From Escherichia phage SSL-2009a, in sequence record NC_012223.2: DNA of 44,899 bases, one strand, 5' to 3'. A model generated the notes under the pieces. The model worked only from the letters and a program-made list of their open reading frames with translations. It had not been told where the DNA came from and did no database searches. Position numbers and translations under genes: made by a program. Shown one piece after another: positions 2,025 through 44,899 of the stretch (the stretch's first letter is position 1; each line of letters opens with the position of its first letter).

Positions 2025-3545
2025 ATGACCGTTAACGTTGACAACCAGCACCCGCTCTATGCGCGCATCGCGCCAGAGTGGAAAATGATCCGTGACTGCG
2101 TAGCAGGGGAGCGCGCCGTGAAGGCGTGCGGACCATTGTACCTGCCACACCCAGCCAGCGGCGACACCACCGACCCGAAATCGCGTGCGCGCTATAAGGC
2201 ATATAAGCAACGTGCTGTCTTCCTGAACGCCACCGCCCGCACACTGAATGCCCTGTTAGGCGTGGCCTTCGCCAAACCGGTGAGTATGGACCTTTCCGGG
2301 GCAATGGCGGACCTGATTGATGACGTAGACGGCAGCGGGATGCCGCTGGCGCAACTCCTGCGCGGCGCTATGTCGGAAGTGCTGCAATCGGGGCGCGCTG
2401 GCTTTATGGTGGACTACGACCGCCAGGCGCATTTTGATGAACTGGGTAACGTAGTGCCGCAGACAGCCGCTGAGATGGCGTCACACCGCCCGCTCATCCG
2501 CCTGTATACGGCTGAACAGATCATCAACTGGCGGCAGACACACGGCGTCGACACGCTAATCGTGCTGAAGGAGACGGACGAAATCAGCACCGAAGACCCG
2601 GACGACTTCGCAAACCACGAAGTTACAATCTGGACCGAGCTTCGCATGATTAACGGTGCGGCACACGCCCGCCGCTGGTTTTACAACGCGGACACGTCCG
2701 AGGTGCAAATGGACTTGCCGCGGGGATTCACCCGCACCGACCTTGTACCACTGGTGGATGCCGCCGGTAACGCGCTTACGCAACTGCCTTTCTGTTGGTG
2801 TGGCGCGGTGGATAACAATGCGACACCAGATGCCGCACCGCTGGCGGATATCGCGTCCATCAACATTAAGCACTACAACGCCGAAGCTGACGTCGCAGAG
2901 ATTGCGCACATCGTAGGTCAACCTACCCTAGTTGCGACCGGCTTGACCCAATCATGGGCTGATAAAAACCTGAAGGGCGGCATCGCGCTCGGGGCAACTA
3001 AAGGCGTCATCCTGGGTCAGAACATGGACGCTAAACTGCTTCAGGCGGAGGAGCGAAACCTGTCAGTTGCGCTGTGTGAGCGACGCGAATTGCAAATGGC
3101 TAAACTGGGCGCGGCCCTGGTCGAGAAGGGGACCGCACCTAAGACGGCAACTGAAGCGGCCTACGATGCGCAGACTGATAACAGTATCCTGTCACTTATT
3201 GCCGGTAACGTTGAGAAGGCTTTCAACCGTGCGCTGCAAATCGTCAAGCTGTTCACGGGGGACACCGCAGATCAACGTGTAACGCTGAATAAGTTCTACA
3301 CCGAGATCACGGTGGATGCACAGCTTATGACCGCGATGATGGCGGGTGTGCAGACCGGTACGGTCCGTCTGGCGGACTTTATCAAGTGGATGATGGCCCA
3401 GGGCGTTATCGATGACTCGCAAACCGTCGAGCAGGTGGAAGACGAACTGCGAAATCAGAATCCATTGCCTCAAATGTCCCCGGATGCGGTAGAATCTACC
3501 GAAGAAGACCCGGACAAGGTAGCGGACAATGGCGAAGACAATTAA
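2025..3545 (+). CDS. portal protein
   Basis: 506 aa ORF after terL, SD AGGAAA 6 nt before ATG, acidic C-terminus; canonical gene order. Confidence 0.75.
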   Translation: MTVNVDNQHPLYARIAPEWKMIRDCVAGERAVKACGPLYLPHPASGDTTDPKSRARYKAYKQRAVFLNATARTLNALLGVAFAKPVSMDLSGAMADLIDDVDGSGMPLAQLLRGAMSEVLQSGRAGFMVDYDRQAHFDELGNVVPQTAAEMASHRPLIRLYTAEQIINWRQTHGVDTLIVLKETDEISTEDPDDFANHEVTIWTELRMINGAAHARRWFYNADTSEVQMDLPRGFTRTDLVPLVDAAGNALTQLPFCWCGAVDNNATPDAAPLADIASINIKHYNAEADVAEIAHIVGQPTLVATGLTQSWADKNLKGGIALGATKGVILGQNMDAKLLQAEERNLSVALCERRELQMAKLGAALVEKGTAPKTATEAAYDAQTDNSILSLIAGNVEKAFNRALQIVKLFTGDTADQRVTLNKFYTEITVDAQLMTAMMAGVQTGTVRLADFIKWMMAQGVIDDSQTVEQVEDELRNQNPLPQMSPDAVESTEEDPDKVADNGEDN

Positions 3546-4632
3546 TCAATATATGGCGGATCGAATGATTCGCCGTCACATCTTCACCCAGCGCCTGAGC
3601 AATGACCAGGCGCGAAGGGTGCTGTCCATGTGGGAGAAGTTCCGGCCCACATTACTGGGAAAGCTGACCGAGTTGCTTGATGGCAAATCGTCAATGAATA
3701 ACAGGGCACTTTCCACCCTGCTAACGCAAATCGACAAGACCGTTAAATCAGAATTGCGCACCGAGTTTAAGGCGTTGGCTGAAAGCCTTCAGGAGTTCGC
3801 CGACACGGAGGCTGATTATCTCACCGACACATTAACGGCAGCGATCCGGCCGGTGGTCGCCGTACCTGCGATCGAGGTGGTGGGCGTGGTGACAGGTGCG
3901 CAGATCGCAGCGACGGCAATGAAAAACCCGTTTCAGGGCAATACCCTGATGCAATGGCCCGATTCACTTTCAGAATGGACCAGGACGCAGATCGGCAATC
4001 AGGTGCGCGCGGGATTCATCCAGGGTAAGCCGACTATGGAAATTTTAGCGGACGTGAGGCGCGCGCTCGGCGGTCGTAGTGCGCAAGCTATCTCAAGCGT
4101 TGTTAAGTCCGCAGTCAACCACTATGCGGCGACCGCCCGCGAACTAATGGTAAAAGCAAATGACGATATTCTCGAAGGGCGCCAGTGGTTATCTACATTG
4201 GACACGCATACTTCTCCCATGTGCCAGCTACGCGATCGCCTGTTTTATCCAGTTGATGTTACTCCCGACACCAAAGGAAAGCGCGGCGGGAAAGTGGTGG
4301 CTGGATCACAATATGGCGCTGGTCCGGGCAAGCTGCATTATTGCTGCCGGTCTACGGAGACGTGGAAGGTTAAAGGCATGGAAGATTGGCCCAGTGGTAA
4401 GCGTCCGGCACTGAAGGCTGACGCTGGTCGATTGCTGAGTGAGCAGGTCGACGCGCAGACTGATTTCTTCTCATGGGTGCAGCGCCAGCCGCGCCATATC
4501 CTGGAAGAATTATACGGAGTGCAACGCGCCGACCAGATTATGCGCGGCGTGAAAGTGCCGAAGATGTTCACCGATTCAGGCGAACTAATGACTATTGCGC
4601 AGCTTAAAAACCGGGGGTTATGGCGTGATTAA
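3529..4632 (+). CDS. head morphogenesis protein (Mu F-like / SPP1 gp7-like minor head protein)
   Basis: 367 aa ORF overlapping the portal stop; position after portal; size and composition typical of F-like proteins. Confidence 0.6.
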   Translation: MAKTINQYMADRMIRRHIFTQRLSNDQARRVLSMWEKFRPTLLGKLTELLDGKSSMNNRALSTLLTQIDKTVKSELRTEFKALAESLQEFADTEADYLTDTLTAAIRPVVAVPAIEVVGVVTGAQIAATAMKNPFQGNTLMQWPDSLSEWTRTQIGNQVRAGFIQGKPTMEILADVRRALGGRSAQAISSVVKSAVNHYAATARELMVKANDDILEGRQWLSTLDTHTSPMCQLRDRLFYPVDVTPDTKGKRGGKVVAGSQYGAGPGKLHYCCRSTETWKVKGMEDWPSGKRPALKADAGRLLSEQVDAQTDFFSWVQRQPRHILEELYGVQRADQIMRGVKVPKMFTDSGELMTIAQLKNRGLWRD

Positions 4633-4954
4633 GTATGCGGCTATTGGACTGGTTATAGGTCTGGCGGTAGGATTCTGGCTTGGAGACTCCTATCGCGCTG
4701 GCGTAGTGGCTGAGGCGGCGCAAGAAGCGCAAGCCGAAGCCCAACGGCAGCAAACTAAAGTAATTGAGCGCTCCGTGCAGGCAGAACAAGCCCGCGACGT
4801 GGAATACCGGACTATCACAAAAGAGGTTGTAAAATATGTTACGCGCCCTAACCGCCCTGATTGTAGTTTTGACGCTGAGCGCGTGCGGATCAAGCAGCGT
4901 GCCGTTGATGCCGCTAACGGAGTCGGCACTGCGACCGCCGTGCAAGTTCGATAA
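4595..4954 (+). CDS. i-spanin (Rz-like), start uncertain (TTG 4595 or more likely GTG 4625)
   Basis: N-terminal TM segment YAAIGLVIGLAVGFWLG followed by charged coiled-coil-like periplasmic region; GTG 4625 preceded by GGGGG SD; contains the o-spanin ORF in the +1 frame. Confidence 0.6.
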   Translation: MRSLKTGGYGVIKYAAIGLVIGLAVGFWLGDSYRAGVVAEAAQEAQAEAQRQQTKVIERSVQAEQARDVEYRTITKEVVKYVTRPNRPDCSFDAERVRIKQRAVDAANGVGTATAVQVR

Positions 4955-6226: not shown

Positions 6227-6250
6227 TGCAACCAATATAGCGCAACCAAT
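6227..6250 (-). promoter_or_regulatory. paired ATTGGTTGC half-sites (minus-strand orientation) upstream of gene 5884-6198
   Basis: tgcaaccaat (6227-6236) and gcaaccaat (6242-6250) on + strand; TATATT between them on the minus strand; member of the recurrent dyad motif family. Confidence 0.45.
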
Positions 6251-25184: not shown

Positions 25185-25206
25185 TGCAACCAACCTATTG
25201 GTTGCA
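25185..25206. promoter_or_regulatory. 22-bp perfect palindrome TGCAACCAA-ccta-TTGGTTGCA (operator-like)
   Basis: Seen directly; overlaps the stop codon of the HAD gene and lies just 5' of gene 24622-25173; TATAGT follows on the minus strand. Confidence 0.55.
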
Positions 25207-36992: not shown

Positions 36993-37322
36993 ATGAATAT
37001 CAACGACGCAATCGAAATGTTAACTAAGACTGTTTGCAGTGAGACTAGCCGGTCGTGGGCTTATACCGATGCCGTTGGGGCGGTGCTATTTGAGGTCGAG
37101 CGCCTGCGCAGTGTAGAAAAAGAATTACGCGCCAGGCTGGAATTGCTCAACGGTACAGCGGCGAGCAAGCTGCAGAAGCACAATGAAGAAATGGAAGAAT
37201 ATAAAAAACAGGTTATCAGTTTGCGCGCCGAGGGCAAATCCTGGGCGATGATTGCCGAGTTGACCGGAATTAATCAGAGCACAGTGCGCTCCTGGGTACG
37301 CAATAATAAAACTTCTAAGTAA
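36993..37322 (+). CDS. helix-turn-helix DNA-binding protein (putative transcriptional regulator)
   Basis: 109 aa, SD GGAGA; C-terminal HTH-like segment SWAMIAELTGINQSTVRSWV. Confidence 0.55.
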   Translation: MNINDAIEMLTKTVCSETSRSWAYTDAVGAVLFEVERLRSVEKELRARLELLNGTAASKLQKHNEEMEEYKKQVISLRAEGKSWAMIAELTGINQSTVRSWVRNNKTSK

Positions 37323-42888: not shown

Positions 42889-43290
42889 ATGTTAGATTCG
42901 ATCTTGCGACGTAAAGAACGCATTATCAAGACACTGCCCGCAGTGCAGAACCCAGAAGCGCGCCGCATCCTGGCGGGGGATATGAATGTATCAGGCGTCT
43001 TTGACAAGGCCGTGCCTGAAGGGACGCCGGTGGCTAGCGCTACCGTCACCATCACGCCAGCTACCGCCGCAGTTGGTGAGACAGCCGCCGCGACTGTTGC
43101 CATCCTGCCATCCGGAGCGACCAACAAGACCGGGTCGTGGGTGTCGGCTAACCCTAACCGCGCCTCAATCAATCCGACTACCGGAGAAATCACAGCGAAA
43201 GCAGCGGGTAACGTCCGCATCGTTTGGGTGGCGTCCGACGGTAGCGGGGTGCAGGCTGACGCAGGCTTCACAGTAACGGCAGCCGCATAA
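42889..43290 (+). CDS. Ig-like (Big_2-type) domain protein
   Basis: 133 aa; C-terminal region rich in T/A/V/G (ATVTITPATAAVGETAAATVAILPSGATNKTG...GNVRIVWVASDG); SD GAGGTGA. Confidence 0.45.
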   Translation: MLDSILRRKERIIKTLPAVQNPEARRILAGDMNVSGVFDKAVPEGTPVASATVTITPATAAVGETAAATVAILPSGATNKTGSWVSANPNRASINPTTGEITAKAAGNVRIVWVASDGSGVQADAGFTVTAAA

Positions 43291-43297
43291 ACCAACA

Positions 43298-43324
43298 AGC
43301 CCGGATAATACCGGGCTTTTTATT
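43298..43324 (+). terminator. rho-independent terminator after Ig-like gene
   Basis: GCCCGG-ataata-CCGGGC followed by TTTTTATT. Confidence 0.6.
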
Positions 43325-43331
43325 GCTTGAC

Positions 43332-43369
43332 TTGCAACCAACATAGGGGCCATACTGCAACCAACCAAT
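43332..43369. promoter_or_regulatory. two TGCAACCAA motif copies (reverse orientation)
   Basis: ttgcaaccaa 43332-43341 and tgcaaccaaccaat 43356-43369, just upstream of the micro-ORF SD. Confidence 0.4.
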
Positions 43370-43385: not shown

Positions 43386-43475
43386 ATGACACGTAACGAT
43401 ATTTGGGTATTAGCAATCTGGACCACCGCGGCTTTTATTGGCATGGTTATTTGCGAGGTGATGTATGGCTTTTAA
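43386..43475 (+). CDS. hydrophobic micro-protein (29 aa, single predicted TM helix)
   Basis: MTRNDIWVLAIWTTAAFIGMVICEVMYGF; strong SD AGAGGAG 8 nt upstream of ATG 43386; found by manual translation. Confidence 0.4.
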   Translation: MTRNDIWVLAIWTTAAFIGMVICEVMYGF

Positions 43476-43654
43476 ACCGCGGCGCGATTCCCGACCTTTG
43501 GCAGACAGACCACGGGGTGCACAAATGGAGGCGTCATTCTTCCAGGGGTTATCATTCCTCACCAAAAAAGAGCAGGGGAAAGTAATGGGTGAATTCCGAC
43601 GCGTATTGGCGGAATTCAAGCAGCAAGACGCAGAATAGTGCCTCGCCGCCATAC

Positions 43655-43680
43655 GGACCGTGGTATATTGTCCACGGTCC
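43655..43680. promoter_or_regulatory. perfect 9-bp inverted repeat GGACCGTGG-tatattgt-CCACGGTCC upstream of the phosphoesterase gene
   Basis: Seen directly; loop contains TATATT; 22 nt upstream of ATG 43703. Confidence 0.45.
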
Positions 43681-43702
43681 ACTAATCAGGAATTAATTAA
43701 AT

Positions 43703-44845
43703 ATGCACCCGCAAACTAAAATTACCGATGAGCAATTGATCGCCGAAATTCAGGCAGGGACTACGGTTAAAGAGATTGCGAAGAAATACGGCATTGCACT
43801 TCGTAACGTCTACATGCGCAAAGCCCGCCTGTCGAAAAAGGGGATTGGTCATGGCAATGACGCCGTGATCCGTAAGCGCGTTGCCGATGGCTTTGGGGTT
43901 AAGCGCGTATCGGCCCTGGTGCGCGGCAATGGCGAAGAGGTCATGTCGTGGGTCATCACTGAGCAGGACAAGGAGCGCCAACTCGAAGCCATGCGCGCTG
44001 TTGTCGAGGGTATGAACAGCGAAATCACACCGGCAGCGCCCGTAAACGCCACGCCAGTCCCGATTCAGGCGCTCGACTTGCTCAACCTGTACACAGTGTC
44101 CGACTTCCACCTGGGTATGCTGGCGTGGGGCGAGGAGACTGGCGAAGACTGGGATATGGCGATTGCTGAAGACCTGTTCTACCGCTGGTTTGTCGAAGCC
44201 TTCGCCCGCGCACCGGACGCAGGCACTGCCGTTATCAATATCCTCGGTGATATGGCCCACTTTGATAGCCTCGACGCCGTCACACCAGCAAGCGGTCACG
44301 TACTGGACGCCGACACACGATACCAGAAGTTGGTCCGCTATATGATTCGCATGGTGCGCAACGTCGTAGACCTGGCGCTGCAAAAACACCACAAAGTCAA
44401 ACTGCTAATCGTCCAGGGTAATCATGACGAATCGGGTATGATTTGGCTTGCTGAGATGTTCAATACCCTGTATGAGAACGAGCCACGCGTCGATGTGGAC
44501 ACGTCCCCGGACGTCTACAAAATGGTGCAGCACGGTAAGACCACGCTGTTTTTCCATCACGGGCACAAAGCGCGATTCGATGCTATCGAGCAGGTTATGA
44601 TCGCTAAATTCAGACAGGCGTTCGGGTCGAGCGAATACAGCTACGCGCACGTAGGTCATTTGCACCACCAGAAGATTGTCGAGTCTCGCAACATGATTGT
44701 TGAACAGCACCGGACGCTCGCAGCGAAAGACGCCTACGCCAGTCGTGGCGGTTGGATGTCCGGTCGCAGCGCAAACGTCATCACCTACAGCGCCAACTAC
44801 GGCGAAGTAGCGCGCTTAACCATTAGCCCAGAAATGTTGAAGTAA
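43703..44845 (+). CDS. metallophosphoesterase (calcineurin-like) with N-terminal HTH domain
   Basis: 380 aa; N-terminal HTH-like TVKEIAKKYGIALRNVY; C-terminal phosphoesterase motifs GDMAHFD, GNHDE, GHKARFD, GHLHH. Confidence 0.65.
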   Translation: MHPQTKITDEQLIAEIQAGTTVKEIAKKYGIALRNVYMRKARLSKKGIGHGNDAVIRKRVADGFGVKRVSALVRGNGEEVMSWVITEQDKERQLEAMRAVVEGMNSEITPAAPVNATPVPIQALDLLNLYTVSDFHLGMLAWGEETGEDWDMAIAEDLFYRWFVEAFARAPDAGTAVINILGDMAHFDSLDAVTPASGHVLDADTRYQKLVRYMIRMVRNVVDLALQKHHKVKLLIVQGNHDESGMIWLAEMFNTLYENEPRVDVDTSPDVYKMVQHGKTTLFFHHGHKARFDAIEQVMIAKFRQAFGSSEYSYAHVGHLHHQKIVESRNMIVEQHRTLAAKDAYASRGGWMSGRSANVITYSANYGEVARLTISPEMLK

Positions 44846-44861
44846 CGGCGACCCGTAACCC

Positions 44862-44891
44862 GCCCAGCCTGCCGATTTGGTGGGCTTTTTT
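44862..44891 (+). terminator. weak terminator-like hairpin with T-run at window end
   Basis: Short stem GCCCA/TGGGC followed by TTTTTT after the phosphoesterase stop. Confidence 0.3.
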
Positions 44892-44899
44892 GTGCCTGT

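Follow-up and report, generated by a model that had tools for sequence, protein, structure and literature searches.

A helix-turn-helix metallophosphoesterase of the phage T1 gp16 family in Escherichia phage SSL-2009a, with a palindrome over its promoter

Gene, promoter and palindrome

The window analyzed here is the complete 44,899-bp genome of a Dhillonvirus, Escherichia phage SSL-2009a (NC_012223.2; IMG/VR UViG_643677414). Our subject is a gene at positions 43703–44845, which encodes from an ATG start a 380-residue protein with an N-terminal helix-turn-helix (HTH) and a C-terminal metallophosphoesterase (MPE) domain, together with an inverted repeat that overlaps the promoter of this gene. 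From the list of open reading frames (ORFs) and from family matches, the protein is a member of PHROG 704, the family of phage T1 gp16. GenBank already lists the gene as a phosphoesterase or a DNA repair exonuclease, and the region was matched at 80–99% DNA identity by 155 phage records, of which Escherichia and Shigella Dhillonviruses make up nearly all. All features of this unit described below lie on the plus strand.

An extended −10 element, TGgTATATT, could be read from the sequence at 43661–43669, with the TG at 43661–43662 and the hexamer TATATT at 43664–43669. No usable −35 hexamer was recognizable at this promoter, and a consensus promoter scan did not list it because the scan requires a −35. 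When we aligned the 23 Dhillonvirus promoters that we had collected, TGnTATATTG (alignment columns 19–28) was invariant in all of them, except that n (column 21) was either G or A; the element is predicted to have promoter activity. A Shine-Dalgarno-like AGGAA follows at 43688–43692, 10 nt before the ATG, and the sequence AATCAGGAA in this region is kept in most Dhillonvirus relatives.

Downstream of the gene, a terminator scan placed a hairpin like that of an intrinsic terminator, with a T run after it, at 44866–44896, a sequence also found in one relative (L085). A sub-threshold Rfam match to the small RNA CyaR/RyeE (44810–44891; 24.3 bits, where the gathering score is 47; E 0.13), which covers the 3′ end of the gene and the terminator, most likely reflects similarity to the terminator hairpin. 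The next genes on the circular map are terS (56–628) and terL (628–2013), so that the phosphoesterase gene is placed between the lysis and the terminase genes. In most relatives DNA similarity begins only at 43640, implying that the promoter travels with the gene, and the segment upstream is mosaic. Given its own promoter, the terminator that closes it before terS and the mosaic segment upstream, the gene is probably a self-contained monocistronic unit transcribed by the host RNA polymerase.

The left arm of the inverted repeat, GGACCGTGG, occupies 43655–43663, and the TG of the extended −10 falls within its last three bases; the right arm, CCACGGTCC, occupies 43672–43680 and covers the expected transcription start (around 43674–43677). 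The original prediction, a note made from the DNA letters alone, had described a perfect 9-bp palindrome with a TATATT loop 22 bp upstream of the gene. The arms are indeed 9 nt long and 100% complementary, and 22 nt separate the right arm from the ATG; the loop, however, is the 8-nt TATATTGT rather than the 6-nt TATATT. By itself, such a repeat is not rare in the window, which contains four perfect 9-bp repeats with loops of 3–12 nt, as compared to 2.2 expected (range 0–6 in 30 first-order Markov simulations). What is noteworthy about the palindrome is its position: left arm and loop hold the extended −10, so that the repeat overlaps the core promoter, where an operator would sit, and its assignment to the gene's own promoter region was correct. 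Elsewhere in the window the half-site had no exact match, and its one-mismatch matches were fewer than expected by chance. A LexA box was rejected by inspection, since the arms read GTGG-N8-CCAC and not CTGT-N8-ACAG.

Domain architecture and family of the protein

Domain searches, profiles and structure prediction bore out the proposed combination of an N-terminal HTH with a calcineurin-type MPE. The AF2 model was confident, with a predicted local distance difference test (pLDDT) score of 91 and a predicted template modeling (pTM) score of 0.80. It comprised a three-helix HTH at residues 9–45 (43727–43837; helices 9–17, 22–29 and 33–45), a low-confidence flexible linker at residues 46–60, and the catalytic domain with motifs I–V at residues 123–380 (44069–44842). 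Between linker and catalytic domain, alignments and model agreed on a family-specific beta-hairpin (residues 64–88) followed by a long helix (residues 90–106; together 43892–44020). W83, in the hairpin, was nearly invariant in one alignment and invariant in a second, N-terminal one. Both profile and fold similarity to solved DNA-binding HTHs placed the N-terminal domain with the LuxR/GerE or sigma-70 region 4 type; the N-terminal region thus has a DNA-binding-type fold, a point on which the original prediction had depended, and is predicted to bind DNA.

The metal-binding motifs of the catalytic domain are SDFHLG (D134, H136), GDMAH (182–186), GNHDE (239–243), FHHGH (285–288) and GHLHH (318–322). 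Three of these (GDMAH, GNHDE and GHLHH) had been listed from the start, whereas motif I (DxH) had been overlooked. Across 60 relatives of 32–49% identity, D134/H136, G182-D183, N240-H241, H286 and G318/H321 were invariant, and D242, H285, H288 and H319 nearly so. The catalytic domain has the MPE beta-sandwich fold, but its Pfam scores fell below the curated gathering cut-offs (Metallophos, 23.8 against 27 bits; Metallophos_2, 20.2 against 21.5). Consequently, membership of the superfamily rests on motifs and fold, and the protein is a member of a divergent MPE subfamily. The folds closest to the catalytic domain were those of the archaeal DNA polymerase D subunit DP1 (PolD DP1) and of the Mre11/SbcD nucleases, not those of lambda-type protein phosphatases. 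A search of the PDB by sequence with the whole protein returned spurious matches to armadillo-repeat designer proteins only, and no real homologue.

The family is already known and very widespread, and no new kind of system comes to light here. The protein matched PHROG 704, whose label is "DNA repair exonuclease", over its full length (E 3.9e-161; residues 5–380 against positions 2–390 of a 390-position profile). Members were found by tblastn in 2061 of 50,697 phage records (about 4%), and there were 3731 proteins at E ≤ 1e-5 in a database clustered at 90% and 4664 clusters at E ≤ 1e-3 at the 50% level. Carriers include Guernseyvirinae (K1G, Jersey-like), Drexlerviridae (Rtp, Jk06 and many Klebsiella phages) and phages of Vibrio, Rhodobacter and Campylobacter; the annotation of Rtp61, 43% identical by tblastn, notes a high similarity to T1 gp16. 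A family HTH model recognized the HTH in 125 of 141 full-length cluster representatives, meaning that the fusion is the normal, ancient architecture of the family. The suggestion that a fusion of an MPE to a DNA-binding domain is less usual was therefore not sustained: it is the standard layout of PHROG 704, and protein A1 of phage T5 has the same one. A 41%-identical homologue with an HTH also turned up in a T4-like replication cluster (Logan SRR17165142 contig, 3523–4674; L073), next to gp59, gp32, a clamp-loader-like gene and regA, and because of this the family is not limited to siphophages or to one genome neighborhood.

T1 gp16, Rtp61 and gp38 of the Pantoea phage AAS23 have the same layout as the window protein (HTH, beta-hairpin, helix, MPE), with identities of 42–47% for the T1-like proteins. 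Several lineages of the gp16 family also carry an extended −10-like TGGTA motif of their own upstream of the gene, as in Dhillonvirus. The position of the gene differs, since in Dhillonvirus it lies between the lysis cassette and terS/terL, with the latter directly downstream, whereas in T1-like phages it precedes the lysis cassette and sometimes stands beside genes for a polynucleotide kinase (PNK) and a deoxynucleoside monophosphate (dNMP) kinase. The GGACCGTGG palindrome is confined to part of Dhillonvirus and is not a T1-like feature.

T5 A1 has been described as joining a GcrA-like DNA-binding domain at its N-terminus to a predicted metallophosphatase at its C-terminus (10.1101/2022.08.27.505566). 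The host chromosome is degraded only if A1 is present, and A1 alone is enough to bring this about; the protein is likened to double-strand-break repair nucleases and polymerase proofreading subunits (10.64898/2026.04.02.716235). Its domain order is that of the window protein, and the likenesses described for it are the window protein's top fold matches. In an alignment of A1 homologues, the C-terminal MPE motifs appeared as GDxH, NHD, HGH and GHTH. When the trimmed MPE domains of the two proteins were compared with hhalign, the probability was 49% (E 1.7e-4), with motifs III–V, the SxWL that follows NHD and a C-terminal (I/V)TY all in register. However, the full-length comparison gave a probability of 23%, BLASTP aligned nothing beyond the NHD motif, and the window protein had no match to PHROG 1745, the A1 family, to which we therefore did not assign it. 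The two proteins appear to share an architecture, and homology beyond the superfamily is unproven. A1 differs, moreover, in its length (556 residues), in a middle region of about 230 residues that has no counterpart in the window protein and in its separate PHROG, and it acts together with A2 and in a two-step DNA transfer, which Dhillonviruses lack.

With Mre11/SbcD and PolD DP1 the window protein has five metal-binding motifs in common, but the sequence identity is only 13–16% and the profile reaches SbcD at just E 0.8, so that the likeness is one of fold. The N-terminal HTH and beta-hairpin module is absent from both of these families, and, unlike their systems, the window protein has no oligonucleotide/oligosaccharide-binding (OB) fold, no polymerase partner and no Rad50/SbcC partner gene. 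A functional precedent for a phage MPE as a host-DNA nuclease is gp48 of mycobacteriophage A10ZJ24, a Cluster A MPE that is expressed early, has the five motifs, acts as a phosphodiesterase and disrupts the genomic DNA of the host (PMC12287305). This likeness is by function; motif I of gp48 lies at residue 10, leaving no N-terminal HTH such as that of the window protein. The Ser/Thr protein phosphatases (PPPs) of the lambda NinI type have the same superfamily fold and two-metal chemistry, but the window protein did not combine the GDxHG, GDxVDRG and GNHE signatures with a closest fold match to PPPs.

The palindrome in relatives and other promoter motifs

Among the 23 Dhillonvirus promoters, the palindrome was perfect (9–10 bp) in six, had one mismatch in eight and two mismatches in two, and was lost in seven, which represent four different promoter variants; a metagenome scan for further promoters gave nine loci, eight of them usable. 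Of the two arms, the left one, over which the promoter element extends, was much better conserved, and the right one was degenerate in L008, L010, L011, L015, L077, L078 and L081. The predicted recognition helix of the HTH, RNVYMRKARLSKKG, was identical in all 23 Dhillonvirus proteins. Conservation in relatives, on which the original prediction had staked the palindrome, is thus only partial: seven promoters lost it despite the identical helix, and in other genera the sequence is absent. In short, the repeat lies over the core promoter of its own gene, as a self-operator would, but it is not conserved alongside the recognition helix. Pair counting gave 73% paired cells against 69% in shuffles, with one outer pair being G:C in four sequences and T:A in three; this covariation signal is weak and within the range of false positives that the tool states for related sequences.

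The palindrome sequence was absent outside Dhillonvirus among the lineages compared. Some of these have repeats of their own over the promoter, such as TAAATAAGA-CTCT-TCTTATTTA on the extended −10 TGGTTAAAT in L049 and ATTTATCCGAT-N12-ATCAGATAAAT in L038, and the promoters of Rtp and of the L032 group were without any such repeat. In two distant homologues, one on a MazG-linked contig and the other on the T4-like contig (L072 and L073), the start of the gene adjoins the preceding gene or lies inside it, and the HTH is kept although there is no promoter of the gene's own.

A different motif, the 9-mer TGCAACCAA, was over-represented in the genome, with 28 sites at up to one mismatch against 11.7 ± 3.7 expected, a number reached in none of 100 shuffles. 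Its sites are paired in intergenic regions, between or just after −35/−10-like hexamers (at 6227/6241, 25185/25198, 27095/27112, 33862/33878, 39610/39645, 40016/40047, 43333/43356 and others); at 43327–43364, for instance, the arrangement is TTGACT-TGCAACCAA-N9-CATACT-GCAACCAA. Judged from this distribution, TGCAACCAA looks like the site of a phage-wide regulator, an operator or promoter motif, and the phosphoesterase promoter lacks it. At 25185–25206, two TGCAACCAA motifs form a perfect 9-bp inverted repeat, TGCAACCAA-CCTA-TTGGTTGCA, which lies between oppositely oriented ORFs and is a candidate bidirectional control site. A possible TGCAACCAA-binding regulator is a 109-residue protein encoded at 36993–37322, just upstream of the primase-helicase gene; it matches PHROG 9366 ("transposase"), has weak HTH matches and is annotated in one relative as a Gam-like recombination nuclease inhibitor.

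Upstream of the phosphoesterase gene lie holin and endolysin genes and then, directly after the endolysin and outside the structural module, a gene for a 133-residue immunoglobulin (Ig)-domain protein (42889–43290; PHROG 215, E 1.4e-24), with a strong bidirectional terminator-like hairpin at its 3′ side (43297–43318). Two small overlapping ORFs follow within 43386–43638, encoding 29 residues (hydrophobic, MTRNDIWVLAIWTTAAFIGMVICEVMYGF) and 57 residues (43465–43638). Both stand 3′ of a promoter-like site in the mosaic segment, where most relatives are dissimilar, and neither had a PHROG match. The 57-residue ORF contains a second perfect 9-bp inverted repeat (43590–43618), TGAATTCCG-N11-CGGAATTCA, with two EcoRI sites.

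Predicted role of the protein and of the palindrome

Our favored reading, which we hold tentatively, is that the gene encodes a DNA-directed MPE, predicted to be a nuclease, that is tethered to DNA through its HTH. The catalytic part would be a two-metal phosphodiesterase domain of the Mn/Fe type, with a fold akin to the Mre11/SbcD and PolD DP1 nucleases, and the flexible linker would tie it to the LuxR/sigma-region-4-type HTH, which would hold the enzyme on DNA. Host RNA polymerase would transcribe the gene as its own unit, from the extended −10 promoter to the intrinsic terminator. The most likely job of the enzyme would be DNA cutting during infection; breakdown of the host chromosome together with nucleotide salvage, as for T5 A1 and mycobacteriophage gp48, is the leading candidate role, and processing of DNA ends in replication or recombination an alternative one. 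The palindrome would be a lineage-specific element around the −10 and the transcription start, acting, if functional at all, as a DNA-level operator that occludes the promoter. It would not be needed by the family, nor would it be the reason for the conservation of the HTH: because distant homologues without a promoter of their own keep this domain, its conserved role cannot be self-regulation, and a role in substrate binding is favored.

A dimer of the protein could nonetheless bind the palindrome through its own HTH in this lineage, repressing the extended −10 promoter and keeping a potentially toxic nuclease low. A repeat over the −10 and the start site has the classic position for a repressor, its half-site is unique in the genome, as for a regulator with a single target, and the centers of the outer half-sites GGACC/GGTCC are separated by 21 bp, which would correspond to two helical turns. 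The one outer pair that covaries between G:C and T:A, the different inverted repeats over the promoters of L048, L049, L069, L038 and L063, and the fact that tight control would make sense given the toxicity of T5 A1 and gp48 to cells, point the same way. Yet the same recognition helix goes with a palindrome that is imperfect in ten of the 23 Dhillonviruses besides being lost in seven, T1-like promoters such as that of Rtp do without it, L038 and L049 combine near-identical recognition helices with unrelated repeats, and the covariation, as noted, is within the false-positive range. Autoregulation is therefore possible in this lineage but unsupported as the role of the HTH, and we consider it quite unlikely as an explanation of the palindrome. 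The position over the core promoter would equally suit an operator through which another regulator, be it a host factor or a repressor or activator encoded by the phage, sets the time at which the gene is expressed. With TGCAACCAA, which is paired at promoter-like sites, the phage has at least one further motif system tied to promoters, so that dedicated regulators do exist; that some relatives have lost the palindrome would also be easier to explain if its regulator were an accessory gene. However, we identified no candidate regulator for the palindrome, its half-site is unique in the genome, and by eye the repeat appears unlike both the TGCAACCAA motif and the LexA box. Nor does its presence follow upstream gene content, as JL1, with different upstream genes, keeps eight of the nine pairs. 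This explanation, too, strikes us as rather improbable.

The palindrome might instead act on RNA: transcripts that read through from the small-ORF operon upstream would end in its hairpin, which would be a stabilizer or weak terminator with no action on the phosphoesterase gene. The predicted hairpin is stable (−21.5 kcal/mol over 75 nt, z = −2.3), begins 17 nt past the stop codon of the 57-residue ORF and shows some G-U-compatible changes between relatives. On the other hand, the stem is followed by no U tract and has no Rfam match, on which grounds an intrinsic terminator or a known RNA element was rejected, and a stem of this length is too short for RNase III. Transcripts from the gene's own promoter could not form the hairpin, because they would start inside the right arm; in L048, L049 and L069 the left arm of the analogous repeat sits on the −10 itself, so that the repeat cannot be in the transcript of that promoter. 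In JL1, moreover, the repeat is kept even though the annotation puts the upstream gene on the other strand. An RNA role thus seems very unlikely. We also regard it as unlikely that the palindrome is functionless and that its symmetry, around a promoter core that is conserved, is accidental or drifting. Perfect 9-bp repeats are expected about twice in a genome of this size, invariance is confined exactly to the extended −10, to which the left arm partly belongs, the right arm is far more variable, and the seven relatives that lack the repeat have an unchanged protein. Against this, at least seven to eight of the nine pairs are kept in 16 of the 23 relatives, paired changes lengthen the outer stem in L005, L012, L014, L080 and L082, and other lineages repeatedly show repeats that overlap the promoter. 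As for the enzyme itself, MPEs are catalytically versatile, and the protein could be a protein phosphatase like that of lambda or a phosphodiesterase of signaling nucleotides that serves as an anti-defense enzyme. The conserved HTH of DNA-binding type, the nucleases that are the best structural matches of the catalytic domain and the DNA and nucleotide enzymes encoded next to homologues of the protein (on the T4-like contig and in AAS23) make this most improbable.

To return to the HTH-tethered nuclease, the T1-like phage AAS23 offers a suggestive context (L086, 12801–15058). Its homologue gp38 (42% identity, E 6e-100) is encoded directly upstream of genes for a 3′-phosphatase/5′-PNK and a dNMP kinase, and a gene order in which these enzymes directly follow fits nucleotide salvage. 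Mass spectrometry has found gp38 in virion preparations (PMC8004638); its presence in particles may hint at packaging or ejection. A packaging nuclease, suggested by the adjacency to the terminase genes, was rejected on the grounds that the gene lies elsewhere in T1-like and T4-like relatives. A study of escape mutants of the Dhillonvirus SECphi4 did not implicate the phosphoesterase gene, and the PUA-Cal-HAD preprint drew no link to phage MPE nucleases.

Several observations weigh against the nuclease reading. Our literature searches gave no biochemical or genetic data on any PHROG 704 member, and for Dhillonvirus or Drexlerviridae phosphoesterases and HTH–MPE proteins they returned mentions at the level of genome announcements only. 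The hhalign probabilities against T5 A1 were only 23% at full length and 49% for the trimmed catalytic domains. Finally, the neighbors of the phosphoesterase gene (small ORFs, the Ig-domain protein and terS/terL) include no Rad50/SbcC partner, implying that the protein is not a canonical Mre11-type machine.

A bolder proposal, somewhat unlikely in our estimate, is that PHROG 704 is the long-sought nuclease that degrades the host chromosome in T1-like, Dhillon-type and Guernsey-type siphophages. It would be a distant relative of T5 A1 in which the HTH loads a two-metal nuclease onto DNA and which, in part of Dhillonvirus, is held in check by a promoter-occluding palindromic operator bound by the enzyme or a partner. 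The family is among the commoner uncharacterized genes that enterobacterial siphophages conserve, including those of Klebsiella, Salmonella and E. coli phages that are candidates for therapy. The importance of the palindrome is only that of a possible handle on the timing of a toxic nuclease. If the protein is an A1-like host-DNA nuclease, it would account for how these phages shut off the host and are supplied with nucleotides, and it would have a bearing on transduction risk and on defense systems that sense chromosome breakdown.

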